Of a stretch of 52,994 nt of DNA, positions 543 through 35,600 are shown in pieces. Each line of letters opens with the position of its first letter. Within the stretch, counting starts at the first letter, position 1. The notes under the pieces are model-generated. The model had not been told where the DNA came from. It searched no databases and worked only from the letters and a program-made list of their open reading frames with translations. This DNA is from a virus. Its lineage: Duplodnaviria > Caudoviricetes. The stretch is taken from positions 1 through 52,994 of IMG/VR virus record IMGVR_UViG_3300025869_000018. One strand, given 5' to 3'. The position numbers were made by a program, and so were the translations under genes.

Positions 543-849
543 ATGGCTAAGAAAAATCAACCATTAGATAGAGAGTATTTCAAAAGAAGAGCTAATCGCT
601 AATCCTAATGTTAAAAAAGGCCCACAACTAACAAAATGTTGTGGTCAGGATAAAGATTACGATAGTCTAAATGTTAGAAATAGTGAAGATTGGAAACTGA
701 TTGAAAACTATATCGAAGAACATCTCAGGGAGTATACCAAACACATAAGTGTTACTCCTGTTTCTTGCGAGAAGTGTGGTATTCTTTTAGAGTATTCTAC
801 TGATATTGATATAGATAAGACATTGGGTTATTATGAAAAAAGTAATTAA
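543..849 (+). pseudogene. Hypothetical Cys-containing protein (~99 aa) frameshifted by a 7-nt tandem duplication
   Basis: GCTAATC is doubled at 591-604. Removing one copy gives a continuous ORF MAKKNQPLD...KCCG...SCEKCG...YEKSN with a GGAG RBS. Confidence 0.7.
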
Positions 850-1423
850 TTGTTTTAAAGAAGACAATCCACTAATTCAAAAAACTTTAAGGAGAGTAAC
901 AGTTGAAGAAGGAGAAACTATTGCAACAAAACTATTTCAGATACTTAACGAAAGAGGAGACGGGATTGGGTTGGCAGCTAATCAAGTGGGAATTGATGCG
1001 CAAGTGGCCGTGGTTAACGTTCGTGAGCCAATCGTTCTTATCAATCCTAAAATTGTTTCTCGTGAAACTGAGATACCTTTTTACGAGGGTTGTCTCTCTT
1101 ATCCTGGCAAAGGGGTAAATACTAAGAGGTATGAGACTGTAGAAGTTAAATCGGATACTGTTGAAGGTACAATGATATTTAGTGGTGTAGATACAGGTGA
1201 GTCTGGAAAAGGTAGTTGGGAACATAGTGAAGTTAAAGAAGATAGGCACGTAAGAACCTTAGAAGCAGTTTGTGTTCAACACGAAATAGACCACCTTAAT
1301 GGTATAAGGTGTTTGGATAGGGTGGTGGATACTACCATAAGAGTTGAAAAGAAGCCAGGCCGTAATGAACCATGTCCTTGTCAAAGTGGTAAAAAGTTTA
1401 AAAAATGTTGTATTAATAAATAA
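833..1423 (+). CDS. def: Peptide deformylase with C-terminal SEC-C motif
   Basis: All three PDF motifs present ([24 protein letters not shown]); C-terminal [18 protein letters not shown]. Confidence 0.95.
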
Positions 1424-2869: not shown

Positions 2870-3285
2870 GGGGCTGTAATGGAACTCGACAGGTGTTATT
2901 TGAAAATAGAGTGCAGCAGAGATTGAGTATGTCTCGTAACAAAAGACTCACAAACCTAATTGACGAATCTAATTCGTTAGCCGGGTTGGACATTGATTGG
3001 CACTTAGCCAATGCTGAAATGGGATTTGACAACTTTGTCGCTCCTATTCAGAATGACCAACCAACTTACGCCTACACGGCTTAAGTTACTGAGTTGTCTA
3101 ACACTCGGTTATAAAATAAGTTAGACACCAACTCTTTTATATCAGAGTATAAAGAAATATCAGTTGGTAACTCTGAGTAAAGTTACAAGTAGTTTGTCAG
3201 TTACTTCTTATTGAAACTGAACTAAGCTGTAAATGACTCTTTGGAGAATACAGACTGGACGCGGGTTCGACTCCCGCCAGCTCCA
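2870..3285 (+). ncRNA. ssrA: tmRNA
   Basis: GGGGCTG pairs with CAGCTCC-A, giving the G3.U70 Ala identity pair. T-arm GCGGG-TTCGACT-CCCGC; GGAACTCGAC D-loop region; pk1-like GAGA/TCTC plus TGAGT/ACTCA; tag frame ends YAYTA-stop; pseudoknot follows the stop. CCA is not encoded. Confidence 0.95.
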
Positions 3286-3303
3286 CAAATTTAAGGAAAT
3301 GGT

Positions 3304-3762: not shown

Positions 3763-3800
3763 AAACCTTGACTCGTATATGTTTTTATTTGTATTATTAG
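3763..3800 (+). promoter_or_regulatory. Sigma70-type (early) promoter, copy 1
   Basis: A-rich UP tract, TTGACT-18 nt-TATTAT; AAACCTTGACTCGTA is identical to copy 2. Confidence 0.75.
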
Positions 3801-3823
3801 GTGTAACAAATAAGGAATAAATA

Positions 3824-4069
3824 ATGAATATAAAACTAGAAATAAGTAAACTAAAAAGTCTTTCGGAATTGAATGAGTTATCATCATTCGTTAATGAATG
3901 TAAAACTCTGTTAGGTAAAGCAGCTCTGTCTGTTGGAGCTAATGTCTTCGTAGTTCAGAAAACTAAAAAGACTCCTGGTGTCATCACTAAGATGAATATC
4001 AAAAAGGCCATCGTTGAAATGAATGGTATGTCTTATAACGTTCCATTTTCAATGTTGGAATTAGCTTAA
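3824..4069 (+). CDS. Hypothetical protein with SH3/KOW-like C-terminal half
   Basis: AAGGA RBS; own promoter; beta-rich pattern VGANVFV...GVITKMNIKKAIV...YNVPFSML. Confidence 0.8.
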   Translation: MNIKLEISKLKSLSELNELSSFVNECKTLLGKAALSVGANVFVVQKTKKTPGVITKMNIKKAIVEMNGMSYNVPFSMLELA

Positions 4070-4082
4070 AATAAAATAAAAA

Positions 4083-4120
4083 AAACCTTGACTCGTACCT
4101 TAATATTGTGTATATTAGGG
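4083..4120 (+). promoter_or_regulatory. Sigma70-type (early) promoter, copy 2
   Basis: A-rich UP tract, TTGACT-18 nt-TATATT, followed by AGG as in copy 1. Confidence 0.75.
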
Positions 4121-4142
4121 TATGAGAAAAAGGGAAAAAATA

Positions 4143-4304
4143 ATGAAGAAAATAAAAAAAGTAAAAAAGAATATGATTGGTTATGGAGCTAAAAAAGCAG
4201 CTCTTGATGATATGAAAAAAGACAATACAATGTTTGATAACTTAGATGGATACTTTGGTAATCCAGATTCTGATTCGAAAATAATTGAGGATTTTCTAAA
4301 ATAA
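4143..4304 (+). CDS. Small hypothetical protein
   Basis: ORF downstream of promoter copy 2. The start could be 4122, but 4143 follows AAGGGA. Confidence 0.55.
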   Translation: MKKIKKVKKNMIGYGAKKAALDDMKKDNTMFDNLDGYFGNPDSDSKIIEDFLK

Positions 4305-4340
4305 AATTGTATAACAGTATATACAGATATACTTATTATT

Positions 4341-4412
4341 GCGGAGGAAGTGTTATAGGAAACACACTTTCTTTCCAAGAAAGAGATATTGGTTCGACTC
4401 CAATCCTCCGCT
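4341..4412 (+). tRNA. tRNA-Gly(TCC), atypical
   Basis: Acceptor GCGGAGG/CCTCCGC, D-stem GTGT/ACAC, anticodon arm CTTTC-TTTCCAA-GAAAG, T-arm ATTGG-TTCGACT-CCAAT, discriminator U73; CCA not encoded. Confidence 0.93.
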
Positions 4413-4470
4413 CAAAATTTTGGCCAGCGAGGCTATTTACTAATTGACTATTAAATAAAGAGAGTACCAT

Positions 4471-5664
4471 ATGGGTTTTAATGATTTCTTCGATGAAGAA
4501 AAATTTGACTTCGATGCTGAACGCAAGAAGTTTATAGGTAATTTAGACTACCTCAAGTCTATGTCTGTACAAGAACAAACATTATATAAAAAGTGGATGG
4601 AGTTTAATGCTGATGTCTACTCTATGACGCAGAAAGCATCAAAGTTTTCTAAGATAGAAAAGTCTATCTGGCTACCTAAAGATATTAACAATAAAGAACA
4701 AACTATCAAAGAGATAGAAGCCTTAGAACCTTACGTTGAGATGACCGAACAAGGTAATACAGAACAGAATGAGATGTGGACATTGGTTCGTAGGTTGATT
4801 CACACTATGGAGTTTACTGCTAATCCTGGCAGAAACGTAAAGTTCTATGTAAAGGATAAAGTTAGTGGTAAGATATTGGGTATCATATGTTTAGGTTCTG
4901 ATGTAACATCATTAGGAGCTAGAGATACTTTTATCGGTTGGAGTAAAGACAATAAATTTAAAGATGGTAAACTTAAACACACATCTATCGGTACAACTAT
5001 ATGTTGCGCTCAACCATTAGGTTTTAATTTCTTAGGTGGTAAGTTAGTAGCCGCTATGGTTACATCATCGGTAGTTAGGGATGCTTGGAAGAAGTTGTAT
5101 GGACAAACCTTAGTTGGTTTATCTACCACATCTCTTTATGGTATTCATTCTATGTATAACTCTATACCACTTTGGAAAACATTAGGTTCTTCATCAGGTA
5201 AGATAGCTCTTAAACCAGATGACGAAACTTATGATGTATGGCATCAATGGTTAAAAGAAAATCAATCAGAAGAGTATCTGAAACAGACTACGCAAAAAGA
5301 AGGTGTAGCGGGTCCTCCAACAGGCGTAAAACAAAAGGTTATCAATATGATATTCAGAGCAGTTGGAGTTAAAGCATCAACCTATATGCATGGATTTAAG
5401 AGAGGTATCTTTTATGCTGATATGTATGAGAATGGTAAGGAGTTCCTGAGGGGAGAGATAGAAGAAAAAGATTTAAAGATGAAACAAAAGTATATTGATG
5501 ATAGTGATTACATTATGAATTGGTGGAAACCTAAAGCTATCAAAAGGTATACTAAGTTATTTGATGAAGGTAAACTTAAACCAGAGAAGTTATTCTACGG
5601 CGACATCGTGGGAAAAACTTGGGAAGAAACAAAAAAGTTGTACTTGAGTGAAGTTGGAAGGTAG
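4471..5664 (+). CDS. DUF4338 / Druantia DruA-like protein (putative GNAT-related fold)
   Basis: Motifs PGRNVKFYV, LGARDTFIGW, PLGFNFLGGKLVA and TTSLYG..SMYN match my recollection of this family. Confidence 0.75.
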   Translation: MGFNDFFDEEKFDFDAERKKFIGNLDYLKSMSVQEQTLYKKWMEFNADVYSMTQKASKFSKIEKSIWLPKDINNKEQTIKEIEALEPYVEMTEQGNTEQNEMWTLVRRLIHTMEFTANPGRNVKFYVKDKVSGKILGIICLGSDVTSLGARDTFIGWSKDNKFKDGKLKHTSIGTTICCAQPLGFNFLGGKLVAAMVTSSVVRDAWKKLYGQTLVGLSTTSLYGIHSMYNSIPLWKTLGSSSGKIALKPDDETYDVWHQWLKENQSEEYLKQTTQKEGVAGPPTGVKQKVINMIFRAVGVKASTYMHGFKRGIFYADMYENGKEFLRGEIEEKDLKMKQKYIDDSDYIMNWWKPKAIKRYTKLFDEGKLKPEKLFYGDIVGKTWEETKKLYLSEVGR

Positions 5665-6093: not shown

Positions 6094-7665
6094 ATGGAAA
6101 ACAACAAAGTAGACGTACTTAAAACGGATGAAGTTGTAGAAGCTTATATAGATAGTGTATTTGATAAGAATGATACTTTACCATCAAGTGATGATAATGC
6201 TAAGTTTAGTGTTAGCTTTTGTAAAAACGCTATGATAGACTTATCACCTAAAGAGTATCAAAGAGAAAAAGTGGCTACTTACGCTTGGAAAGTAGAACTC
6301 ATAAAAACTTTACTAGTTCATAGTCATTACAGAATACCATCAATACATTTCAGAATCTTTCGTAATGAAAAAGAAGCTAGGGATGTTATTTGTTATGAGG
6401 TAGTTGATGGACAACAGAGATTGAGTGCAATACTTGAGTTTATCAATGATGCTGATTTTAAACTACCAGATGATTTCCCTAAAGTTTCAGGTAAGTTTGA
6501 TATAAGTGGTATGAACTTTAAAGAAGTATCTGCAAAATATCCTACTCTTCGTAGTAAGATATTGAACTATGGTTTATCAGTAACTTTGTATGATAACTTT
6601 ACTGATGATATGGTTTCACAACTTTTCGTTGATGTTCTAAATAATACTAATGATTTAAAACCTCAAGAAAAAAGAAACGCTATTCGTAGTGCACTTGCTA
6701 AGTATGTAAGAGAAACTTCTCGAACAGGTTCTCTACATAAATTGTTTACTAGAATAACTGAGAATCCGAAGACACCTGAAGAAAGACATTACTGGAAATA
6801 CTTCTCAAAGAAATTTGGATTAGGTCGTATGGAAGGAGATGAGTGGTTAGCTGAACTTATTTATCTTTTCCTAAAAGGAATGTCCTCTGGCGTTACTCAA
6901 TCTAAATTAAATGACTTTTACAAAAAAACAGCTGTTGTAAAAGACCATCCAGAAGAATGGAATTTCAAAGATGAATTGAAAACTTTAGACTTTTCTAAGT
7001 TGGATAAGGAAATAGATTCACTCCTTTCATCTATGCTTGAAATAATCAAAGCTGCTGGAGATGATAATAGACACAGATTTAATAGAGTTTTTTCTCTATT
7101 CGCAGTTTTGTTTCTATATGAAATGAAGGTTAAGTACAATTGTACTCAAGTTGATTACAAAAAGTACACTACCAATCTTATGAAGACGTATGATAAGTGG
7201 TTAGAACCTAAAACTTATCGTAATAGGGTTCAACACGATGGTTCTACTGTTATGGATAAGTTTTCTAAACTGTTTGGTGGTAAAAACCCTAATGTTTTCA
7301 AAACTGCTGAGATGATTTGTCTTGAAGAGATAAACGGTAATCCTGCGGATTGGGGCTTGGTTGAGCTCGATTCTCGTACATCTTTTTCTAAAGATGATAT
7401 AGAACGTAGGTTGGCTGAAAATGGTGGTGTGTGTGATTATACAGGCGAACCATTAAAGTTTGCAGATGCAGTTGGAGACCACGATATTCCTCGTAGTTGG
7501 GGTATAGGTCTTGGTGGTGATACGGAATACCACAACCTAAAAGTAACGACTAAATATCATAACCAACAAAAACTAAATATGTGTGGTGATGATTACTTAG
7601 AAAAGTTGGGTAAGTTTGCGCAGGCAAAGGCGCAAGCTCGTAAAGCTAAGGAAATGACTGCTTAG
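6094..7665 (+). CDS. DUF262 (ParB-like) plus C-terminal HNH nuclease, GmrSD/SspE-like architecture
   Basis: N-terminal EYQRE, IPSI, EVVDGQQRL, F...LN; C-terminal DHDIPRSWG...GG....NL......HNQQK. Confidence 0.85.
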   Translation: MENNKVDVLKTDEVVEAYIDSVFDKNDTLPSSDDNAKFSVSFCKNAMIDLSPKEYQREKVATYAWKVELIKTLLVHSHYRIPSIHFRIFRNEKEARDVICYEVVDGQQRLSAILEFINDADFKLPDDFPKVSGKFDISGMNFKEVSAKYPTLRSKILNYGLSVTLYDNFTDDMVSQLFVDVLNNTNDLKPQEKRNAIRSALAKYVRETSRTGSLHKLFTRITENPKTPEERHYWKYFSKKFGLGRMEGDEWLAELIYLFLKGMSSGVTQSKLNDFYKKTAVVKDHPEEWNFKDELKTLDFSKLDKEIDSLLSSMLEIIKAAGDDNRHRFNRVFSLFAVLFLYEMKVKYNCTQVDYKKYTTNLMKTYDKWLEPKTYRNRVQHDGSTVMDKFSKLFGGKNPNVFKTAEMICLEEINGNPADWGLVELDSRTSFSKDDIERRLAENGGVCDYTGEPLKFADAVGDHDIPRSWGIGLGGDTEYHNLKVTTKYHNQQKLNMCGDDYLEKLGKFAQAKAQARKAKEMTA

Positions 7666-9005
7666 TGAACATATTCCAATTCACAGATGTCGAGGATAAC
7701 GACAAAGAATACAAATACAAAATACTTGTATATCCAAATATAACTTTCTTAAAAGATTTGGAAAAAGATTCTTATGTCGTTGTTCTCGGTAACATCATTA
7801 GAGAACTAAATAAGATAAGGGATGATTTATTTTTTACAATCGTATCTCCATCTCATATCAATAGTTTAGACTTTGATAATACTGAACAGATTATAGCTCC
7901 TCAGATTAGTTATCCTAATTCTATGAGAATGGCTTTTCCGTTTAAAGAAGTATTTAGTAATATTAAATGGAAAGAATCTGATTACGATATTGTTTACTCT
8001 CATTTGCCAGAACACACAGGTAATCTAAAAAATCTATTATGTAACTCTACAAATATATCACCAGTATTTATTGGTTACACGCATTGGACAGAGTTCAAAG
8101 AGATTACTAACTATGAGTATCAGGTTGGTTTAGCTTACAACATAGTTGGTCTTTTACAGATGAGTGAGTGTGGTATCAATACACAAGCTCAAAAGAATTT
8201 GGTATTGAAAAACGCTAAAGAATATTTTAATGATGATGTAGTTTCTAAATTAGATAAAATATTGCAACCACAATATCTTGGTTGGGAAATACCTAAGTAT
8301 GAAAAACAAACTACAGATAAAAATATTATTGTTTACAATCACAGGCCTCATACTTATAAAAACTATCCTTGGTTCTTAGAACAGATGGATAGGTTATGGG
8401 AAAAAAGAAAAGACTTTGAGGTGTGGGTGCCACTAGCAGAAAGTAGAGAAAGAGAATATATTACAAACGAAAAGTTTGATAGAGTAGGTTACTTCTCTAA
8501 GTTATCCTCTTGTCTTGTAGGTGTATGTTGTAGACAAAAGTATGAAGGTTGGGCTATATCAGCTACAGATGGTATGAGTGTTGGTGTACCTTATCTATTT
8601 TCAGATGATATGAGTTATCACGAACTAGCAGATGGTGCTGGTATTTATTACAAAGATGGTGATGACTTGATAGATAAGATAGAAGAATTAATAGATACAC
8701 CAGATTTAAGAAATGAATGGTCAGATAAAGCTTTGTGGAGATTTAAATTTAGTGTGTGGAATGAGGCTATACATCAGTTTAATAGTATGATTGATTACGC
8801 AATAGATGAATTACCAATGTTAAAAGCAGACACAGATTCATATAATAAAGTTGTAGACTTTATTCACAAAAAGAAATCGGTAACTAAAAAAGAAATATTA
8901 GAACATCTTGGTTGGGGTGTTAGGATATCTTTTAGCGGTTATAGAAATCGTTTAAGAAATGAACCAACAATAAGATTTACAAAAAACAGATATGAGGTTA
9001 GATAA
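7665..9005 (+). CDS. GT-B (family 4-like) glycosyltransferase with C-terminal wHTH-like extension
   Basis: YDIVYSHLPE, YNHR...YKN and EGWAISATDGMSVGVPYL sugar-nucleotide motif; basic ~55-aa tail. Confidence 0.8.
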   Translation: MNIFQFTDVEDNDKEYKYKILVYPNITFLKDLEKDSYVVVLGNIIRELNKIRDDLFFTIVSPSHINSLDFDNTEQIIAPQISYPNSMRMAFPFKEVFSNIKWKESDYDIVYSHLPEHTGNLKNLLCNSTNISPVFIGYTHWTEFKEITNYEYQVGLAYNIVGLLQMSECGINTQAQKNLVLKNAKEYFNDDVVSKLDKILQPQYLGWEIPKYEKQTTDKNIIVYNHRPHTYKNYPWFLEQMDRLWEKRKDFEVWVPLAESREREYITNEKFDRVGYFSKLSSCLVGVCCRQKYEGWAISATDGMSVGVPYLFSDDMSYHELADGAGIYYKDGDDLIDKIEELIDTPDLRNEWSDKALWRFKFSVWNEAIHQFNSMIDYAIDELPMLKADTDSYNKVVDFIHKKKSVTKKEILEHLGWGVRISFSGYRNRLRNEPTIRFTKNRYEVR

Positions 9006-9217: not shown

Positions 9218-9978
9218 TGAAACAACTTACAGAACAACAGATATTAGATAATTGGAATAAGTTAATAAAACTTATTGAGGATACATTCGAAGGAGAACGT
9301 AAAGACAAACTCTTAGAAATGTATAAGTACTTTGAGAATAGAATGGTAACAGCGCCAGCTAGTGGTAAAGCAGCTTATCACAATGCTATGGTTGGTGGTT
9401 ATGTAGAACATGTATTACATGTAACTGATTGTGCTCTTAAAATCAAAAACCTTTGGGAGTCTGAAAGAGCTATGATTAACTTTACAGATGAAGAACTTAT
9501 CTTTGCTGCTATGCATCACGACTTAGGTAAAGTTGGTGATTTAGATAACGACTACTACATACCACAAGACTCAGAATGGCATCGTAAGAACAGAGGTGAG
9601 ATATTCAAACACAATCCAGCTCTTCAGTATATGACTGTAACGGATAGAGCTATATTTATCCTTAACCACTTTGGTATTAAGATGTCACAATGGGAATACA
9701 TCGGATTAAGACTAACTGATGGTATGTATGAAGAAGCTAATAAATCTTACTATATGTCTTACAATCCTGATTGGTCATTAAAGTCTAATATAGCTTATAT
9801 CTTACATCAGGCTGATATGATGGCTACACACATAGAGTTTGATGAGTGGCAAAGAGCAGATGAAGAGGTAAGTAATAAGTTTAAGAAAGCAGTTACTACC
9901 GAAGAGAAACCTCAACCATCTGAGAAGTTAAGTGAGAAATCAGCTGACTTATTTGATGAACTATTTGGAGATAAGTAA
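9217..9978 (+). CDS. HD-domain phosphohydrolase
   Basis: APAS...YHNA..GGYVEHVLHV, HHDLGK and LHQADMMA (YhaM-like HD pattern). Confidence 0.88.
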   Translation: MKQLTEQQILDNWNKLIKLIEDTFEGERKDKLLEMYKYFENRMVTAPASGKAAYHNAMVGGYVEHVLHVTDCALKIKNLWESERAMINFTDEELIFAAMHHDLGKVGDLDNDYYIPQDSEWHRKNRGEIFKHNPALQYMTVTDRAIFILNHFGIKMSQWEYIGLRLTDGMYEEANKSYYMSYNPDWSLKSNIAYILHQADMMATHIEFDEWQRADEEVSNKFKKAVTTEEKPQPSEKLSEKSADLFDELFGDK

Positions 9979-17221: not shown

Positions 17222-17536
17222 ATGCCATACACACAAGAGGAATTAAAAAACCTATCGTTTTATCAAAATTTAATTGATGAAGATGAGCAAAAATATTTAA
17301 ATAGAAAGGCTCTATTGACTTTAAAATCTAGCCTATCAGGTTCAGCAGACAATGGTGAGCTTGTGTATAGAGATAAAAGTGGAGCAATATTAGTTTTTGA
17401 AAATCCTTACACAAATACATTAAATGAAGATTCGAACACAAAAGTTGTGTATGATACCAAGTTAAAATTATTGAAAACAACAGCAGCTGATACTATCATA
17501 GACGAGGTATTAGATAGAGATTTTGAGGAGTTATAG
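17222..17536 (+). CDS. Hypothetical protein
   Basis: Tightly packed ORF within the structural operon. Confidence 0.75.
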   Translation: MPYTQEELKNLSFYQNLIDEDEQKYLNRKALLTLKSSLSGSADNGELVYRDKSGAILVFENPYTNTLNEDSNTKVVYDTKLKLLKTTAADTIIDEVLDRDFEEL

Positions 17537-20500
17537 TGGCTAGTCAACTAACAGAGAAAGATAAACAATTACTGGATGCAAATCTTCCAACGAAGGTGGG
17601 GTTAAAGCCTTATGAGGATGGCTTATGGGGTTCTCAAGGTAGTAAAGATTTTGTTCATTTACAATTATTTGACGAGAACAACAACCTTATTCAATTTGAA
17701 ACTGTGTCCACTTCTCAATTTGAAATAAATCCTAATAATAATAATATTGAATTTTATCCTGGAAATCACATCAGGAGTTTAGGTTACGAAAGTGGTATAT
17801 TTGTTGTAAGATATAACTTTTTGAGAAAATTAGCTGGTAGTGAAAATCCTGTATTGTTACACACGATAAGTAAAACCGACACTAAGGTTGGCGATGTATA
17901 TACTGATACGAGTAGGATTTACATAACTGATGATTCTATAGTATATTCAGGTACAGAGCAGGAGTATAAGGATAATCCATCTGGTGCAGAAGTATTAGCC
18001 ATAGAAGATTTAAAGTATAGAATAGATGTTATATCTCCAAATAGAACTGAGGTTAGATTAAAAGCTAAGAATATAAATGGTACTTACAAAGATGAGTTTA
18101 TTGATATACAGACTGCTATAATCGTAAAGCAAGTTACTAATAATATTAGTTTTTTAGGTGGTACACTATATGATTCTGTAAACATATCGTTGACTCCTGA
18201 AAATGGTGGCTTTGTATTTACACCCAAAATGATAGACGGAACAATAACAATACCAGATATATTTCAGATAAGTCAAATAGAAGTTCCTGTAAAGACTAAT
18301 ATAAATGCTGTTAAAAATGGAGAGGGCGAAAATATTTTTCTTCAAAACAATGGTGAGCCAGTAGATATAGCAAATTCAAGAGAGTGGGATACTACATTGC
18401 ACGATGACGCAATTAGAGTAGAAAATTGGAGTGATGGGTACAATAGTTTTAGTGGCGGTACTTTTGGGGGAACGGCTCATATAGGTTATCATGCAAAATG
18501 GGTTAAAGAAGAAGGTGTAGTCGGTGGTAATTGCATTAAATTTACAGACCAAAATGCTAGTTTTATAGATTTGCCTGAATGGCCAAACGATCAAAGATAT
18601 CGTTGGTTGGGAATTTCTCAAAAAATTTCTTCATTAAATGGAAAAGGTGTTAAAGATGGCGATATCGCCAGTATAAGCTTTGATATAAGAAGTACGGTGG
18701 CGAATAAAGGAGTTGAGATATCTTTACGATATGCTAATTCTCTTGTTCAAGAAAATATACCTCTAACTGCTCCTGCGGGATTTTATGACCCAAACCAACC
18801 TGGTCCGACTGAAGCTCAACCTACATCTCCACCAGAAGGATATTCTCAAAATAGTATGGCAAGTGCTCAAGCAATACAAACAAAGCCGGATGAAACGGAA
18901 TTACAAATGTTAACCACTCATTCGGATATGGTTTCATTTCAGTCTTATATAAAGCCAATGGCTCCAAATTTTGGATTAAGAGATCCTCAAATCGGCGATA
19001 ACAATGCAAGTACAACTTTACCAAATCAAACCGCTGCTTGGAAAATAGGAAATATATTTGATGATGGTGATGTGGTTTATCAATGGATTCCTGATTTAGA
19101 AGAGGATTTAAAAATAGGAACTAAAAGTTTAGGAGAAGAGTGGGAATGGGATGGTTACTCGTGGTTAGTGTCTCCGACATTAGCTAACTTTCCACCACCA
19201 CCTCCAAATACAGTAAATAATCTCAATGCTGTTAATCACCACCCTTATGTACCCAAAACACAAGGTGTATATAGTAGTAATGACGCTTATTATCCAAGAG
19301 AAAATTTTCCTGGTGAAAATAATGGTTGGCAAACCGCGACAGTAGTTGGAAATAACGCCACTGCTTTACTTTTTAAAGATGATTTAATATGGAAACAAAA
19401 ACACGATAACACAAATAATAATTTATCTAAATTTGATTTTTATACTTTTGATGAATATTTTCCTGCACACATTTATACGCCTCCTGAAGAAGTACTAGAA
19501 ACGTTTAATCCGTTTGAAGCTGCTATATTGGCAAATTCGATTGGTAGAGGAATTAGGGATGTAATTGTTGATGTAGACACCAATAAAAAACTATATGATG
19601 ATATTTTTGAAAAAGGATTTATTCAGAGTGTTACTCGTGGCCCAAATAACGATGGTACTGTTAAAAGTGGCTTATATTTAGTATTTTATAATAACGGAGA
19701 TATCGGTGGGGATGGTATACCAACAGAAGATTCTAACAAATACTTCTACGTTCACAGAAATTATGGAGTTTTAGATACCTACAATGATGGTGTGCTTGTA
19801 CAGTTTTTGAAAGATATTAATGGTGGTTTGAATCAAAAAGTTATAGACAATGAGTTAAAACTAGAGTGGTTTTTTAAAAAAGACGGTAGTAAGTTTAAAT
19901 ATTATATTCATGTTGGTGAAGAATATTATTCAATAAAAGATGCCGACCGTAAAATAAAAGAACAAGATATTACTGGTCCTGATGATGTTAGTGATGGGTT
20001 TCCAGGATCAGAAAATGCTGATGCTATACTAGGAAAAGTTGGTGGGTTTGGAAGATATCGTTACATTATAGGTGACAGGCAACTTAGGTCAAAAAGTAAT
20101 ACTGGCGATGGAACAGACAGAGACAAAGATATAAATGATAAATTTTATAGATGCGGTGAATATATCTCTAAAGATACACCAGTAACATATGGAGTCAGAA
20201 ATATAAGCGCTACAAACTATGGTGTTCAAAACGAAGATGGTGAGGTTATTAATTCTGAAGAGGAGCCTGTATACGACAATGATAATGGTATTTATAATTT
20301 TGAAAACAACCCAACACAAGAAGGAACATTAAGTCCTCTTGGAGTTTGGAAATGGAGTGGTAATTTAGATACAGGATGGGTTACAAATGCTTTAACTCCT
20401 CCAAGGTACAACTATACATCACCAGGAATTACAAAAGCTTGGGTTTCTCCTGAGATAGCCGGCGAATGGGTAAATGTAAGTGCTGAGATACCAATACCAT

Positions 20501-23500
20501 CTGATTGGGAATTAGGTCAAGATTGGTTTTTATATATCTATGGGGATGGTTCTCACACAAATGCTGAAAATGCTTCTGCTTATAGACAACAAGGAGTGGT
20601 TTGGGTAGATAACGTTTCTATAGATTTTATTCTTAAAGACCAATCTGAAACTATACCTGTCTATAAACCTTATAGTGCTCAGATAAAAACCATAAATAAT
20701 GATGGAACTTTAATTACTGTAGACAAAACATTAAGAGAGGCTGCTTTAGAAATAGGAGCCAACGATGATTTTGAAAATGGCGGAGAAGGAGATGGTAATC
20801 CTGATATTTACAACTTAACAGAAAACTTTAATTTTGAAAATTTTAAAGTCACTTATACAAATTTAAATCCAAAGGATTTAAGAACCTATCTTAAATTCGA
20901 AAACAATTTATTTCTAACAACCAATTTTAAATCAGACAGAGTTAGTGTAAGCCAATTTCCTTACTCTATAGTATATAAATTATATGAACCATTACCTGAT
21001 AGTTATGAAAAATTCGATGAATGTATTGTCGTTAAAGAAATGGCAAATCCATTAGAAGAAAAAGTTAGAATAATAGATTTTGTTAATGAAGAAGAGCCAT
21101 CATTAGTTCTTAGGTCTCCTGATTTGAATAATGTAGAAAGTCCAGTACAGAGAAGAGAAACTCAATTCAAAACAGAAGCTGATATATTGACTTCTTCTAC
21201 TACAGTATCGACAGCTCTTAGAAATAAATTTTTAAGTCAAAGTTTAGATAGTGTAGAGATAAATACAGACTATTCTAAATATGAAAATTTTGTAAATTTT
21301 GGTTCAGCTGAAGTTAGGATTAGAAACTTTAAAACAAAGTTAGAAAATATAGAACAATATAAAATAGATAGTGCTTCTTATTCTGGTGTAAGCGGTTCTT
21401 TAGGGGATATGAGTGTTTATCATCATAAAATAATAGATACAGAAAACAAACTTGATAGGTTTGAAAATTATATGTATTTTAAAAGTTCTTCTTACGTTAG
21501 TAGTTCTATTGGAATATTTCATGATAACGCGTGGCCCAAAGCTAGTGGAGAAGGAACTGTAAATAGTCCTTATGTTTTAGCACACACCACATCGTCTCAA
21601 GCTAATACTTGGTTTACAAACGCTGTAAACTCTGCATCACTTTATGATTTAGAAAATAATTCAAAACTAAGTGACATACTTCCTGAACATATAAAAATTG
21701 ATACAAAAAATGATACATATCTAAGATTTACGGATATGATAGGACAACACTTTGATGGTATATGGGAATACATAAATGCAGTTACAGATGTTACTGATAG
21801 AAGGGATAGGTTAGACGAAGGAATTTCAAAAGATTTATTGTACTCAGTTGCTAAGTCTTTAGGTTGGAACTTAAATGATGGAAAAGACTTATTGAGTTTA
21901 TCTAGATATGCTTTGGGTAAAGAGGTAACTGGTTCGGCTTATTCTGATTATTCAGCTACATCTGAACGTGATATATCAAGAGAGATATGGAGTCGTATAA
22001 TAAACAACATGCCTTTTTTCTTAAAGAATAAGGGTACTGTTAGGGCCTTGAAGGGCTTAATAAATGTTTATGGTATCCCATCAACCATTTTAAGGGTTAA
22101 GGAATATGGAGGACCTGCTTTATCAGATGATGCATCTCCACAATTTGAAATAACAAGAAAATTTACGAAAGCTTTAGATTTCAAAGGCGCTCAATCTGTG
22201 AAAGTAGCTTGGGCTGATGATTCAACATCAGGAAGAAAACCTGATACTGTAGAGTTTAGGTTTAGAGCCGCTACTGGTTCAAATCAAATACTTGTAGAAA
22301 AGCAAGATAATAACAATCAAGATTGGTTTATAAGATTAAAGGACAATGGTTCTGTAGACAACTATGGTCAAGTTTCATTTATGTTATCAGGCTCTGCTGT
22401 TGGTAAAGATTTAGGCGAACTTAAAGAAATTACTTCAACATCTTTGCCTGTATATGACGGTGATTTCTATTCGGTTATGGTTAATAGAACTTTAGGAACT
22501 AGCAATACTGCTGTATCCCAATCTTATCAGCTTAGTGTTGGTAAGTATGATGCAAGTAGAAGTAAGATACATTTATATAGTACATCTACTATGGATGTTA
22601 CACAAGCTGCTTCGTCTTCGTTTAGTAATGCTTGGACAGGCAGTGGTGACATTTATATTGGTGGTAGTGGTAGTCTAGCAGATGTGGGGGCTCAGTTTAG
22701 TGGTTCTATTATGGAATACAGACATTGGACAGAGATATTAAATACAGGTTCGTTTAAAAATCATATAGCTAATCCAAAAGCTTACGATGGTAATACTGTA
22801 TCGTCATCTTATAGTAACTTAGTTTTAAGGTATTCATTTGATGACAATAAAGATTTAAGTTCCGATATAGAGGGTATTAGGGATGTTAGTTCAAACCAAA
22901 CCCAAACATTGTCAGGTTCACATAGTGGTTTTACAGGAAACTTTTTTAGAAGTGTTGTTGATGAATTGAAAACTCATATACCAAGCATAGGTGCTTTAAG
23001 AAGAACTACAGACAAAATTAGGATTGAATCTAATAATTTAAAGCCAGGCTTTGCTCTAAGTTCAGAACACAGAGCTACTGATAGTGCTTACGATACCGCT
23101 CCAAGCGATTCGAATAAAGTTGGAATATGGCTCGCTCCTACTGATGTTATAAATAACGATATTATTAACTCCGTAGGTAATTTAAACTTTGAAGATTATT
23201 TGGGTGACCCTAGAGATAAAGAAGAATTGAGCTACAGAGGCTTAAATTATGTAGCTGATAATTACTGGAAAAAATACACAGCGCCAAACAATTTTTGGGA
23301 TTATATGAGAATGATTAAATATTATGACCAATCATTATATCCACAACTGAGAAAATTAATACCAGCTAGAGCAAAGCCAGATATTGGATTGTTAATAGAA
23401 CCTAATATCTTTGAAAGACCAAAAGTTGTCGTTGGTAAAACTCCTGATTTAGAAAATACGTATTTTAGCTCTTCTATAGACATAGGAAAAGAATTTGTGC

Positions 23501-24444
23501 GTGTAACAAGTTCATTTAACGCTGGGTTACCAATAACTAATTATGATGCATATACAGCTAACATTGATGTCTATAGTTATACAACCGGCTCATCTGTTAT
23601 CTCATCTAGTGCCGAAAATTTACTTTATGAGGCTAGTAGTTCAGAAGCTAGAGATATTTTTATAGAAAGAAGCATTTGGCAAAGACTGAATGATAATGAC
23701 GAATTTTATTCAAACGTAACAATGTCTTTTGGAGACACATTAAATGGAGTAAAGGGTGGTAAACAAGTATTCGTAAGCGGTTCTAGAGTGTATGGAATAA
23801 ATGAAAGAACTTCAAATTTTTATACTTCATCAGCCGATGCTTTAATATTCAATGAAAACTCTTCATCCTTTCACAATACGGATTTAGATAACTTTAGTCA
23901 CCTAACTCAAGGACTTAGAAATTCATTTTACATTGGAGTTAAGAATACTAAAAAAACTACATCAGATAACAATTCTCCTGTAGAGGTAATAATATCAGCA
24001 CCAACTAAACTTGTAACAACTGACCAAGGAGGATCTTCGTTGGATACAGGAGATGGTATAGTTCCAGATTTTAAAGAGGGTGATGATAAAGACGAAAAGG
24101 TACTAAGTAAAACATACGAAGAATTACAAATAAAAAATAAAGGTAAGAAGTTTGGACTCAAATCATTAAGCAAAACTTCAGAAAGCGATATGGATAGGAT
24201 AAAGAAAAAGAAAAAGAAAAAGATTAAGAAACTATCGGATGAAGGTAAATTAATTTTAGAGAAAACTCCCGATGATAAACAAATTAAGTTTGAAAATGTA
24301 TCAAAATCTATAGAAGAATTGATGGAAGTCGAAAGTAATGAAATACTAAAAAAACAGGTAGATAAACTGAAAGAAGATGGTATACTGAACGAAAAGCAGG
24401 TTGAAAAATTAATCGATGATGGTGTATTGAAAAATGAGAAATAA
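17536..24444 (+). CDS. Large baseplate/tail protein (2302 aa) with gp7-like segment and LamG/ConA-like domain
   Basis: FLKNKGTVRALKGLINVYGIP...VKEYGG resembles the baseplate I/gp7 motif; TVEFRF...IYIGG...FSGSIMEYRHW is LamG-like. Confidence 0.7.
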   Translation: MASQLTEKDKQLLDANLPTKVGLKPYEDGLWGSQGSKDFVHLQLFDENNNLIQFETVSTSQFEINPNNNNIEFYPGNHIRSLGYESGIFVVRYNFLRKLAGSENPVLLHTISKTDTKVGDVYTDTSRIYITDDSIVYSGTEQEYKDNPSGAEVLAIEDLKYRIDVISPNRTEVRLKAKNINGTYKDEFIDIQTAIIVKQVTNNISFLGGTLYDSVNISLTPENGGFVFTPKMIDGTITIPDIFQISQIEVPVKTNINAVKNGEGENIFLQNNGEPVDIANSREWDTTLHDDAIRVENWSDGYNSFSGGTFGGTAHIGYHAKWVKEEGVVGGNCIKFTDQNASFIDLPEWPNDQRYRWLGISQKISSLNGKGVKDGDIASISFDIRSTVANKGVEISLRYANSLVQENIPLTAPAGFYDPNQPGPTEAQPTSPPEGYSQNSMASAQAIQTKPDETELQMLTTHSDMVSFQSYIKPMAPNFGLRDPQIGDNNASTTLPNQTAAWKIGNIFDDGDVVYQWIPDLEEDLKIGTKSLGEEWEWDGYSWLVSPTLANFPPPPPNTVNNLNAVNHHPYVPKTQGVYSSNDAYYPRENFPGENNGWQTATVVGNNATALLFKDDLIWKQKHDNTNNNLSKFDFYTFDEYFPAHIYTPPEEVLETFNPFEAAILANSIGRGIRDVIVDVDTNKKLYDDIFEKGFIQSVTRGPNNDGTVKSGLYLVFYNNGDIGGDGIPTEDSNKYFYVHRNYGVLDTYNDGVLVQFLKDINGGLNQKVIDNELKLEWFFKKDGSKFKYYIHVGEEYYSIKDADRKIKEQDITGPDDVSDGFPGSENADAILGKVGGFGRYRYIIGDRQLRSKSNTGDGTDRDKDINDKFYRCGEYISKDTPVTYGVRNISATNYGVQNEDGEVINSEEEPVYDNDNGIYNFENNPTQEGTLSPLGVWKWSGNLDTGWVTNALTPPRYNYTSPGITKAWVSPEIAGEWVNVSAEIPIPSDWELGQDWFLYIYGDGSHTNAENASAYRQQGVVWVDNVSIDFILKDQSETIPVYKPYSAQIKTINNDGTLITVDKTLREAALEIGANDDFENGGEGDGNPDIYNLTENFNFENFKVTYTNLNPKDLRTYLKFENNLFLTTNFKSDRVSVSQFPYSIVYKLYEPLPDSYEKFDECIVVKEMANPLEEKVRIIDFVNEEEPSLVLRSPDLNNVESPVQRRETQFKTEADILTSSTTVSTALRNKFLSQSLDSVEINTDYSKYENFVNFGSAEVRIRNFKTKLENIEQYKIDSASYSGVSGSLGDMSVYHHKIIDTENKLDRFENYMYFKSSSYVSSSIGIFHDNAWPKASGEGTVNSPYVLAHTTSSQANTWFTNAVNSASLYDLENNSKLSDILPEHIKIDTKNDTYLRFTDMIGQHFDGIWEYINAVTDVTDRRDRLDEGISKDLLYSVAKSLGWNLNDGKDLLSLSRYALGKEVTGSAYSDYSATSERDISREIWSRIINNMPFFLKNKGTVRALKGLINVYGIPSTILRVKEYGGPALSDDASPQFEITRKFTKALDFKGAQSVKVAWADDSTSGRKPDTVEFRFRAATGSNQILVEKQDNNNQDWFIRLKDNGSVDNYGQVSFMLSGSAVGKDLGELKEITSTSLPVYDGDFYSVMVNRTLGTSNTAVSQSYQLSVGKYDASRSKIHLYSTSTMDVTQAASSSFSNAWTGSGDIYIGGSGSLADVGAQFSGSIMEYRHWTEILNTGSFKNHIANPKAYDGNTVSSSYSNLVLRYSFDDNKDLSSDIEGIRDVSSNQTQTLSGSHSGFTGNFFRSVVDELKTHIPSIGALRRTTDKIRIESNNLKPGFALSSEHRATDSAYDTAPSDSNKVGIWLAPTDVINNDIINSVGNLNFEDYLGDPRDKEELSYRGLNYVADNYWKKYTAPNNFWDYMRMIKYYDQSLYPQLRKLIPARAKPDIGLLIEPNIFERPKVVVGKTPDLENTYFSSSIDIGKEFVRVTSSFNAGLPITNYDAYTANIDVYSYTTGSSVISSSAENLLYEASSSEARDIFIERSIWQRLNDNDEFYSNVTMSFGDTLNGVKGGKQVFVSGSRVYGINERTSNFYTSSADALIFNENSSSFHNTDLDNFSHLTQGLRNSFYIGVKNTKKTTSDNNSPVEVIISAPTKLVTTDQGGSSLDTGDGIVPDFKEGDDKDEKVLSKTYEELQIKNKGKKFGLKSLSKTSESDMDRIKKKKKKKIKKLSDEGKLILEKTPDDKQIKFENVSKSIEELMEVESNEILKKQVDKLKEDGILNEKQVEKLIDDGVLKNEK

Positions 24445-32679: not shown

Positions 32680-35600
32680 ATGGCCATCGTAAAAAGATTC
32701 AACAGATTACTTGGACTTGAAAAAATAGATGTATTGGTAGATGAGAAGGATAAATCCAGACACATCGTAATTACCAATATACCTGAAAGCCTGCCTCAAG
32801 GTAAAAGCTCTTTTCTTATAGAGGCTTCTCCTTATATGAGAAAGGGAATAGAACTTCAAATAGACTTTATCGACTCAAAAGGTAATAGTATATATGTTGA
32901 ACCAGTTCAAAATTATTTAGAAGGTTCTTCCAGAACTGTATCGGTTGAGGTATATGATACAGTAGCACCAGGTGTTGCTACAATGATAATAGTAGGTGAA
33001 TTAGATAGATTACCATTAGATTCTGGAAATTATAGTGAAGTAGAAGAAATACCAAAAGAGTTTCAAGGAGTTTATAATGTAAGACTTACCAAAGAATTTA
33101 TTATAAATACTGCTGAAATAAATGTTCAACCTATAAAATTTTATACATCACCAAAACTCACAGCTGTTGAAAAACGTTTTGGTACAATGATTAGAGAAGT
33201 AGTATCAGGCGAAACCGTATCTTCTGCATTCAAAGTTAGAGGACAATCAAATATACAACAACAGTATGAGATATTTAATAATCCATCTCAAAATGATGAT
33301 ACAGGAGAAGGGGCTGGTGTAACAGAAACACAAGAAAATCAAACACCACCACCACCTAACGGAGATATTCCAGGTGATGAAGCTGAAAAAGAAAAATTAA
33401 AACAACATGCAAAGAAAAAAAGTATCAGAGGAAATAGTAGATTTAAAAGGTCTAGAAGAATAAGAAGGAGAAATTCACCAGAAGATTTTCCGTATTTTTT
33501 TACTATAGGAGATGACGAACATAGATTTACTACAAAAGAAGTAGGCGCAGAAATAAGATTTTCTGCCATAGATACTTCCCTATACAGTCAAGAAGACTTA
33601 GATAACAATGGTTTAAAAGTTCCTGTCTCTTTCAATGTGGTTACGGATCCGGATGATGAAAACTTTCCAAACCATTACACAGCGTCAATTGCTGAGTTAG
33701 ATGTTACGGGTACAACTGCTTATGTAAATACACCATTTACAAAACAAGATGTTGAAGGTAACTATAGAATTTTAAATATGGCAGCTACTGCTAAAACTCA
33801 TTTTACTCGTGAACCATCTGCTTCTTTTAGTCTAACAAACATAGTCTCTTACGCGGATATTACATTAAGTCACCTTAGAACTTTCTCAGGCGAAGTTTTT
33901 AAAGCAAAGGTTTACGTAAGAAGTGAAGGTTCTTTTGACGATTACAAACTATTAGCTGAAGTACCTGTAGAATCTCCTGATAAAATGGTAAATAACAATT
34001 CGGTTGGTGTAGGAGAAAGAACAGGTTATTTCGTATCGGAAGAAGATAAAAATACATATTGGGATTTATTTGGAAGTACGAATGGATTGACAGCAGCTAC
34101 CGCTACATCAACTGCTTCATATCAAGAATCAACTACAATGTTAGATTCTGTAATGATATCAGGAAGTACATCAGTATTTACAGACCAAATAAGATTTCAA
34201 TTAAAAGATGAATACAAATTTGAGTTGAGAAAAAGTATAGATTATACTTTATCTTTTAATGCTATAGGACAAAAAGATATTGATGGTAGGGCTTTAATGC
34301 TGGTGTATGTTTCTGGCTCTTCTATGAAACAATCAACTGATTTACATAATGATAGCGTGACTCAAACTGATATAGAAGAATCCTCTGCTTATGGTAAAAG
34401 GATGGGAGTCTTAGAAGTAGAGTCTTCCGATGATATTAAAAAAGATTTTAAACTAGTTACTCATAATTTTAATTCAATTTTAACTGGCGATGCTGTAGTT
34501 CAGTTTAGGGTTATATCTGGACAATGGAACCTATCAGACATATCAGTAGTTCCATCAACAGACACAGGCTTCTCACCTTCATTTATAAATTTTCAACAAG
34601 AATTATCTCCTGAACTAACACATAAAAGACCTGAAACATTAGAGTTTCTGACGGAGTTTTATGATATAAATAATAATTTGGCAGATGAAATTGCTGTAAC
34701 TACAGGTTCTGTATTTACTGGCGCTAATATGGTTATTACAGGAGACGACAATAACATTCCTGGTAGTGTGTTTATAGGTGGAGAAACAACTGCTAGTGGT
34801 ATGCAGTTTGGTGGTGTTGACTCAACAATACCTGAAACAGGAGACGATGGAGCTACTGGTTCTGGTTTTATGAGGTCAGTTGGTTATTTGGGATTCACAT
34901 CTGCTTCAAACTCATCGTTAGGTGGTAAGCCTGGCTTTATGATTTATAGTGGTTCTGTATTACCTGGCAGTGGTGAAAATTATGCTGGTGTTGGTTTAGA
35001 ATTAGTTGGAGCTAGTGGTTCATTAAAATTTAGAACTAATCCAAGTTTATTTGATGTACAAGCAGATTCATTTTTTGTAGGAAAAGCTACAACACAATTT
35101 ATAAGTGGTTCGAGTGGAAATGTAGAAGTAAGTTCATCAAACTTTCATTTAACACCTGAAGGTAATGTTACAATGAGTGGTACAATTACTGCGGAGTCTG
35201 GTTTCATAGGTGGTTTTGCAATTGGTTCTAATACATTATCTACTACTGGTGCTTTATTAGGAGATTCAACTCAAACTCACTTTATAAGTTCAAGTGCATT
35301 TAAAGTAGATCATAGTGGAAATGTTACTGCTAGTAATATAGATTTGGGTGGTAAGATAACTGCTACGAGCGGTGAGATAGGTGGGTGGACTATACACGAA
35401 GATATGTTAGCTGCTGGTACAGGAAACAGTTCAGTTTCAATGAGTGGTGATGATCAACTTTTTAGATTTGGTAGTGGTTCTGTTTTCAACATTGGTGATA
35501 TTGATGGTATACTTTTTGGTCAAGATACTGATGGTAAGTATAAATTTGGTGTAGGTCGTGGTGAATCTTATATATTCTTTGATGGAGATTCAGTAAACAT

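Follow-up and report, generated by a model that had tools for sequence, protein, structure and literature searches.

The locus examined here raises the question of what a phage tRNA-Gly does when U8-A14, among the most conserved tertiary contacts in tRNA, is replaced by A8 and U14. The gene lies in a stretch of 52,994 nucleotides (the window), an IMG/VR virus record rated 28% complete, with a G+C content of 33% and nearly all genes on one strand. It represents part of the genome of a marine myovirus of about 190 kb. Genes for a baseplate wedge protein and a primase are present, as are two giant ORFs. Judged by the baseplate protein, the closest cultured phages are Microcystis phage Mel-JY01 (49.6% at the amino acid level, 190 kb) and Flavobacterium phage immuto (40%). 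Megablast of positions 3800-5000 against cultured phages returned no match. Fifteen public runs each contain half or more of the words sampled from positions 3900-5100, and all are labelled as marine, seawater or aquatic viral metagenomes.

The neighborhood of the tRNA gene (Table 1) includes a peptide deformylase gene and a tmRNA, which together with tRNA-Gly form a cluster of translation-related functions. The tmRNA was missed by ARAGORN in the window and called at the same place in relatives, whose tag peptides end in YAYA(A) (e.g., L002, L003, L007 and L012). Downstream, an ORF at 6094-7665 (+) combines a GmrSD_N (DUF262) domain with a C-terminus that weakly resembles endonuclease VII, and it adjoins a glycosyltransferase gene (7665-9005). 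The giant ORFs lie at 17536-24444 (2302 aa) and 32680-46185 (4501 aa), both on the + strand. A promoter and terminator scan found sites no more numerous than in shuffled sequence, with none that was terminator-like between the tRNA and the DruA-like gene.

Table 1. Features of the window in and around the tRNA-Gly gene.
Feature	Position	Strand	Basis
tRNA-Gly(UCC), 72 nt, CCA not encoded	4341..4412	+	ARAGORN; Rfam RF00005, 59.7 bits; cloverleaf covariation in 23 distinct homologues
A8, at the usual U8 site	4348	+	Sequence; 15/15 syntenic copies and 23/23 distinct sequences; contigs of 3 runs concordant
U14, at the usual A14 site; partner A8 or, alternatively, A21	4354	+	Sequence; invariant in both alignments
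Anticodon UCC, between U32 U33 and A37 A38	4374..4376	+	Sequence; ARAGORN
T stem, 5' strand AUUGG (positions 49-53)	4388..4392	+	Sequence; additive EF-Tu model, -9.6 kcal/mol
T stem, 3' strand CCAAU (positions 61-65)	4400..4404	+	Sequence
U73 discriminator	4412	+	Sequence
DruA/DUF4338-like gene, 58 nt downstream of tRNA-Gly	4471..5664	+	Pfam PF14236, E = 1.4e-27; syntenic anchor for the homologue search
Peptide deformylase gene with C-terminal SEC-C motif	833-1423	+	Pfam, E = 5.4e-27 and 1.4e-09; upstream of the tRNA
tmRNA, full length	2870-3288	+	Rfam RF00023, 86.3 bits; upstream of the tRNA

Direct reading of the sequence gives an acceptor stem GCGGAGG/CCUCCGC followed by A8 and A9, and a D stem GUGU/ACAC closing an 8-nt D loop, UAUAGGAA, which begins with U14 and contains G18 G19 and A21. 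A26 precedes the anticodon stem CUUUC/GAAAG with its loop UUUCCAA, and the variable loop is the 4-nt AGAU. The T stem is formed by A49-U65, U50-A64, U51-A63, G52-C62 and G53-C61 and carries the T loop UUCGACU, while A15 and U48 make a Levitt-type pair. Because the bases after U73 are CAA, the CCA end is not encoded. The initial annotation had described swapped positions 8 and 14 with an AU-rich T stem, perfect stems and intact glycine identity elements, and each part of this description is correct: all 21 stem pairs are Watson-Crick, and the identity set G1-C72, C2-G71, G3-C70, U73, C35 and C36 is present.

Scoring as a tRNA gene, proposed at the same time as a check, agrees. ARAGORN calls tRNA-Gly(tcc) at 4341-4413, and the Rfam RF00005 score is well above the gathering score of 29 (59.7 bits, E = 1.8e-10). 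Positions 4341-4412 are a bona fide tRNA gene. A single-sequence fold reaches -26.6 kcal/mol (z = -5.0), with none of 200 shuffles as stable. This fold draws U14-A21 and A8-U65 and slips the anticodon hairpin, and it was not adopted as the structure. In the folded tRNA, A8 and U14 may form a mirrored reverse-Hoogsteen pair, or U14-A21 may form a fifth D-stem pair; either pairing is compatible with the data.

The swap is not an error of one assembly. In three public runs, which belong to three studies, the contigs across the tRNA (X15 record 9, X1 record 3 and X4 record 28) agree with it letter for letter. This run evidence consists of assembled contigs, so it bears on the letters of the tRNA rather than on RNA ends, CCA addition or expression level, and an RNA-library contig across the tRNA is not proof of transcription. 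Run X16 had no contig across positions 4105-4391. Homologues were collected with the downstream DruA-like protein as anchor and with no selection on the tRNA, and 80 of 256 relatives were kept. In 14 of these 80 loci a tRNA-Gly lies directly upstream of the DruA-like homologue, with a gap of 50-130 nt. The other 66 loci are mostly more distant relatives, and one of them, L014 (74% identity), is without a tRNA in its 4 kb of sequence upstream. The window and the 14 syntenic homologues all have A8 and U14 (15/15), and the stems vary. Since the contigs of three runs agree and every syntenic homologue carries A8/U14, an assembly error can be dismissed.

More divergent copies extend this picture. 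An exact 26-nt anticodon/T-arm pattern matched no stretch in viral contigs; a pattern scan that added more divergent swapped tRNA-Gly from other viral contigs gave 24 stretches, in 22 of which ARAGORN called a tRNA. A BLAST search found a swapped tRNA-Gly in the cultured Leptolyngbya phage Lbo-JY46 (Rfam, 59.5 bits). The combined set comprises 23 distinct phage A8/U14 tRNA-Gly sequences. Placed on the cloverleaf, 98.2% of the cells are paired and 16 of the 22 pairs have changed on both sides, a result matched by none of 500 shuffles, with compensatory changes in all four stems. The 7/4/5/5-bp cloverleaf of a class I elongator tRNA (RF00005) is thus maintained with covariation. As the cloverleaf is held by compensatory changes that no shuffle equals, decay can be excluded, and purifying selection acts on the gene as a tRNA. 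Intact stems had already been taken as an argument against decay, and covariation now carries that argument.

The conserved positions are those expected of a tRNA, apart from the swap itself. A8, U14, the D-loop G18 G19 and the T-arm stretch GGUUCGA are invariant in all 23 sequences, so that the elbow nucleotides (G18, G19, T54, Psi55, C56) are retained at the sequence level in 23/23. The same holds for G1, C2, C35 and C36, together with G70 and C71 in window numbering (standard 71 and 72), and all 15 distinct close-family sequences have U as discriminator. U33 and A37 do not vary, and 21 of the 23 sequences have U34, while all five anticodon-stem pairs and positions 32 and 38 differ among them. 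The family departs from the class I elongator at the U8-A14 reverse-Hoogsteen pair, which is replaced by A8/U14 in 23/23. The swap described by the initial annotation therefore holds across homologues: all 15 syntenic copies and all 23 distinct sequences have it, with covarying stems.

These data also bear on whether the element is a working tRNA at all. A decaying gene, or a tRNA-like RNase P/Z processing signal for the DruA-like gene, might explain the constant location of the element, 50-130 nt upstream of one and the same gene with no terminator-like site between the two. C35, C36, U73 and U33/A37 would be dispensable in a processing signal, yet the identity elements and the anticodon loop are invariant and all four stems carry compensatory changes. 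The decaying gene is ruled out by the stem covariation, and the reading as a whole is extremely improbable.

Several related tRNA types were seen alongside this set. Loci L245, L261, L255, L257, L258 and L219 hold a swapped tRNA-Gly(UCC) with the T arm AGGGG/CCACC, which implies A49·C65 and G51·A63 mismatches and scores 39.5 to 44.6 bits in Rfam; blastn of the L245-type tRNA against cultured phages gave no match. L246, an 82-kb IMG/VR contig, has canonical tRNA-Gly (U8/A14, U73) beside swapped tRNA-Gly (A8/U14, A73) at 7517-7675 and 9696-9924, and the array contains such canonical/swapped pairs for both the GCC and the UCC anticodon. The swapped tRNA-Gly of L252 and of Lbo-JY46 also have A73. 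The tRNA-Gly of Rhodococcus phage Trina, a match to the L252-type tRNA, was rejected as a swapped case, being U8/A14 by eye.

The distribution of the swap was compared between phage and cellular DNA. A narrow pattern requiring A8, U14 and the UCC loop was scanned against one genome per species (185,579 species) and gave 30 stretches, only two of which are tRNAs, both on short contigs of metagenome-assembled genomes (MAGs). The first (L238, 7.5 kb, MAG 'bacterium TMED198') encodes a DruA-like protein 90% identical to that of the window at the amino acid level. The second (L219, 12.9 kb, a Saprospiraceae MAG) shares 73 to 81% identity with L245 and L261 across more than 4.5 kb. Because both are collinear with viral contigs, they are probably phage sequence that was binned with bacterial MAGs. 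When the narrow pattern was recast as its exact U8/A14 analogue, it matched none of five bacterial genomes, so this nearly empty cellular result applies to one D-arm architecture. Looser patterns in Bacteroidota genomes found the canonical form in 14 of 101 and the swapped form in 0 of 401, a modest control. A8/U14 tRNA-Gly is, in this analysis, a rare variant seen only on phage-like DNA.

The swap can be placed in context with 330 distinct tRNAs that ARAGORN called in unrelated viral loci (331 before the focal copy was removed). U8/A14 is found in 251 of 331 tRNAs from loci L084-L212 (76%), although some calls may be false positives. A8/U14 occurs in 9 of 330 (about 3%) against 2.0 expected under independence (Fisher p = 2.5e-5), and seven of the nine pass the Rfam gathering score. 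The nine lie on four contigs and comprise tRNA-Ile, Pro (two), Asp, Ser, Phe, His and Lys (two). This co-occurrence of A8 and U14 in other phage tRNAs fits a compensated pair. Position 21 is G in five, A in three and U in one of the nine, compared with A in 194 of the 251 canonical tRNAs. Bacterial control tRNAs run through the same pipeline were U8/A14 in 40 of 40, a small set from the best-scoring loci, and neighboring tRNA-Ala, Cys, Glu and Tyr in the focal phage group are all U8/A14.

A jumbo-phage array, L115 (13.5 kb of a 322,633-bp IMG/VR contig), has A8/U14 in tRNA-Ile, Pro(GGG), Pro(CGG), Asp and Ser(GCU). Four of these five swapped tRNAs pass the Rfam gathering score, several start with C1, and a tmRNA is present at the locus.

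The best explanation, to which we assign a probability of about 0.6, is that the gene encodes a functional phage elongator tRNA-Gly(UCC) that decodes GGA/GGG and has a compensated A8/U14 core. The invariant G18 G19, GGUUCGA, U33, C35, C36 and A37 argue for this reading, since they are the parts needed for the elbow and for decoding. GlyRS charges isoacceptors that differ at position 34, and the conservation of U34 therefore points to decoding. Codon usage provides further support. Glycine accounts for 8.1% of 15,920 codons (1,286 codons), and the 4501-aa ORF alone has 560 glycine codons (12.4% glycine); GGU is the commonest glycine codon (58%), followed by GGA (30%), with GGG at 4%. In L006 and L015 (3867-3939 in each) the syntenic tRNA-Gly has the anticodon ACC and is otherwise nearly identical to the L012 copy. 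An A34 tRNA-Gly is unusual in bacteria, and this one, the only anticodon variant found, matches GGU. Both the 30% share of GGA and the match of the ACC variant to GGU favor a role in decoding. So does the position of the gene near the phage tmRNA and peptide deformylase gene, as does the relative G001 (79% complete), in which tRNA-Gly is the sole tRNA.

Under this decoding reading, host GlyRS would charge the phage tRNA through its standard acceptor and anticodon identity elements, and the charged tRNA would decode GGA/GGG during infection. The U8-A14 pair of the lineage would have been replaced by A8 and U14 as a compensated core variant under purifying selection, with two predicted consequences: position 8 would carry no 4-thiouridine, and the T stem would bind EF-Tu about 1 kcal/mol more weakly than that of an average bacterial tRNA-Gly.

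The compensated pair is suggested by the excess of A8/U14 co-occurrence in viral tRNAs (nine against 2.0 expected) and by the Rfam scores of seven of these nine. Engineered tRNAs speak against full compensation. A U8A/A14U tRNA-Leu kept 1 to 8% of LeuRS efficiency and did not complement in vivo, as reported in PMC6614811, and the same double change in tRNA-Leu did not restore TrmK methylation in the experiments described in PMC9801127. These two results indicate that proteins contacting the core can tell U8/A14 from A8/U14. Compensation is thus putative, since the engineered swap is not neutral and some proteins discriminate it.

A different use of the changed core was also weighed. If A8 and U14, with a possible U14-A21 pair, alter the bend of the tRNA on the ribosome, the UCC anticodon could read beyond GGA/GGG, for instance all four GGN codons, and so serve the dominant GGU. 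Core mutations far from the anticodon reportedly loosen decoding, as in the Hirsh suppressor. The high share of GGU, the sole tRNA of the 79%-complete relative, the natural ACC variant and the U14-A21 pair drawn by the single-sequence fold would suit this scheme. C32 is the base that permits four-codon glycine reading by an unmodified UCC. The window has U at position 32, and the close family has U or A there; by the account in PMC7826273 it is this position that determines whether unmodified UCC decodes all four glycine codons. The rule at position 32 counts against altered decoding, and a T stem weak for EF-Tu would not help near-cognate reading; altered decoding is very unlikely.

To estimate the strength of the T stem, the additive values of Schrader and Uhlenbeck were used (A49-U65, -0.5; U50-A64, 0; U51-A63, +1.0; relative to -10.1; PMC3239215, Table 2), which give -10.1 - 0.5 + 0 + 1.0 = -9.6 kcal/mol for the window tRNA-Gly. 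The same source gives a bacterial Gly-UCC mean of -10.8 (sigma 0.68) and a calculated -9.5 for staphylococcal non-proteogenic tRNA-Gly. Across the 15 distinct family sequences the model yields -9.4 (five), -9.5 (three), -9.6 (two), -10.0 (one), -10.3 (three) and -10.5 (one) kcal/mol. The sequences at -10.3 have an A51·C63 mismatch and the one at -10.5 (L249) has G51-C63. [quoted passage not shown]

A bias toward A and T as the sole cause of the weak glycine T stem was rejected, as neighboring tRNAs match their class means: tRNA-Ala has -10.1/-9.8, tRNA-Cys -10.0/-10.5 and tRNA-Glu -10.6, against class means of -10.0, -9.9 and -10.4, respectively (PMC3239215). Because these neighbors follow the bacterial EF-Tu tuning rule, these phage tRNAs seem to be adapted to ribosomal use. 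The weak T stem and the swap are separable, since the swapped tRNA-Gly of L246 and L252 have a strong predicted T stem (-11.2) and five canonical phage tRNA-Gly(UCC) in the sample range from -9.6 to -10.5 in the model. The weak EF-Tu binding that had been proposed is therefore plausible for the window tRNA-Gly, with a model value well below the class mean beside neighbors on target, but it is not a constant property of the family (-9.4 to -10.5). We read the predicted affinity as a loosely tuned, variable property rather than as a sign of a non-ribosomal role. It nonetheless weighs against the decoding reading that 10 of 15 sequences fall 1.2 to 1.4 kcal/mol below the mean, at the level of a staphylococcal cell-wall tRNA, while neighboring tRNAs are on target.

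This resemblance to staphylococcal tRNAs underlies the idea of a glycyl donor, in which the tRNA would be charged by GlyRS, kept off the ribosome by weak EF-Tu binding, and give its glycine to a transferase. The likeness to staphylococcal NP1-3, the donors for FmhB, FemA and FemB, includes the UCC anticodon, the glycine identity set and a nearly identical T stem that is weak by the model. The staphylococcal stem reads A49-U65, U50-A64, A51-U63 (PMC7826273), next to A-U, U-A and U-A in the window, with model values of -9.5 and -9.6 kcal/mol, in a family that spans -9.4 to -10.5. The uniformly low family values beside neighbors on target would also suit a donor.

The features that mark the staphylococcal tRNAs are nevertheless missing. 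In those tRNAs UGC or UGU replaces UUC in the T loop, and the only modifications listed in PMC7826273 are s4U8 and D19; the window tRNA has A8, G18 G19 and the T loop UUCGACU, and thus lacks U8, U19 and the UGC/UGU loop without Psi55. Its elbow and anticodon-loop nucleotides, U34 included (21 of 23), are conserved. T-stem strength reaches -10.5 where G51-C63 is present in L249, and the five canonical phage tRNA-Gly(UCC) are also weak. The non-proteogenic lineage is reported only from staphylococci (PMC7826273), while the window comes from a marine phage. Staphylococcal NP tRNAs have Fem transferase partners; FemAB (PF02388) and Acetyltransf_6 (PF13480) were found in none of five records, the window and four relatives, all of which are incomplete (28 to 79%), so that absence is not proven. 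Taken with the variable affinity, these differences leave the glycyl-donor claim of the initial annotation unsupported, and we consider this role highly unlikely.

A further reading accepts normal decoding and asks why the swap is kept. ThiI reportedly acts on U8, and s4U is said to be a near-UV sensor. As ThiI modifies U8, A8 would not be thiolated; it follows directly that A8 cannot become s4U8, and the avoidance of 4-thiouridine formation, raised as an alternative in the initial annotation, would hold by chemistry. More broadly, the swap may be retained since the tRNA would be a poor substrate for factors of the host or of competing elements that read U8/A14 or the core. Such factors could be ThiI, whose thiolation brings near-UV sensitivity, further modification enzymes, or a tRNA-directed defense nuclease or toxin, and phage translation would continue when host tRNA-Gly is disabled. 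In its general form, A8:U14 tRNAs would be a phage-restricted stealth class with charging and decoding intact, invisible to host readers of U8/A14 (ThiI and light sensing or quality control that depends on s4U8, other modification enzymes that read the core, or a so far unrecognized defense against tRNA-Gly), and would serve as an anti-defense or stress-proofing device. Both the specific and the general version are tentative and, in our estimate, unlikely.

Several observations are in keeping with such evasion. LeuRS and TrmK, which are unrelated but both contact this region, lose recognition of the tRNA when A8:U14 is engineered into it. The phage is marine. Swapped tRNA-Gly was seen only on phage-like contigs (2 of 30 matches being tRNAs in 185,579 species genomes, both collinear with viral contigs), the loose swapped pattern was absent from 401 Bacteroidota genomes while its canonical counterpart occurred in 14 of 101, and the swap recurs in unrelated phage tRNAs. 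The escape of phage tRNAs from tRNA-targeting defenses is, moreover, an established phenomenon, as reported in PMC10264068, PMC11464382 and PMC11555353.

Other observations weaken the same reading. The neighboring tRNA-Ala, Cys, Glu and Tyr keep U8/A14, so the threat would have to be specific to tRNA-Gly; we know of no tRNA-Gly-directed defense, and none was identified in this analysis. The classical photo-crosslink joins s4U8 to C13. Position 13 is U in most family members, and this crosslink would therefore not form. In known escape tRNAs the differences lie in the anticodon loop, and the eLife text that was covered brings up no D arm and no tertiary pair. Descent from a single ancestral phage tRNA-Gly accounts for the conservation just as well.

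A conserved, widespread natural swap shows that the tRNA core can be rebuilt as A8/U14. With the swapped phage tRNA, the dependence of host enzymes on U8/A14 can be probed in a defined system, and Leptolyngbya phage Lbo-JY46 is a carrier available in culture. Should the swap prove adaptive, it would represent a new way, outside the anticodon, for phage tRNAs to differ from host tRNAs. If evasion of host factors were its purpose, the swapped tRNA-Gly, often the sole tRNA of a widespread marine myovirus group, would not be a codon supplement. A search of the open-access literature found no description of a natural A8-U14 tRNA and only engineered mutants. The noteworthy part is the conserved natural A8/U14 arrangement, for which an earlier description may exist.

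Known systems offer several comparisons. With the canonical elongator tRNA-Gly(UCC) of bacteria and phages the window tRNA shares the cloverleaf, the glycine identity set, G18 G19, the UUCGA T loop, U33, A37, the A15-U48 Levitt-type pair and a 4-nt variable loop, whereas its family has A8/U14 in place of U8/A14 and lacks a G-C pair at 51-63 in 14 of 15 sequences. The engineered U8A/A14U tRNA-Leu has the same A8:U14 arrangement, but as a laboratory mutant, while that of the window is natural and conserved. Like the phage escape tRNAs described for mycobacteriophage, for T5 tRNA-Lys against PARIS and for tRNA-Tyr against retron effectors, it is phage-encoded, selected and different at a normally invariant position. 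Those tRNAs act through anticodon-loop changes or tRNA supply in the accounts of PMC10264068, PMC11464382 and PMC11555353, whereas the change in the window lies in the tertiary core.
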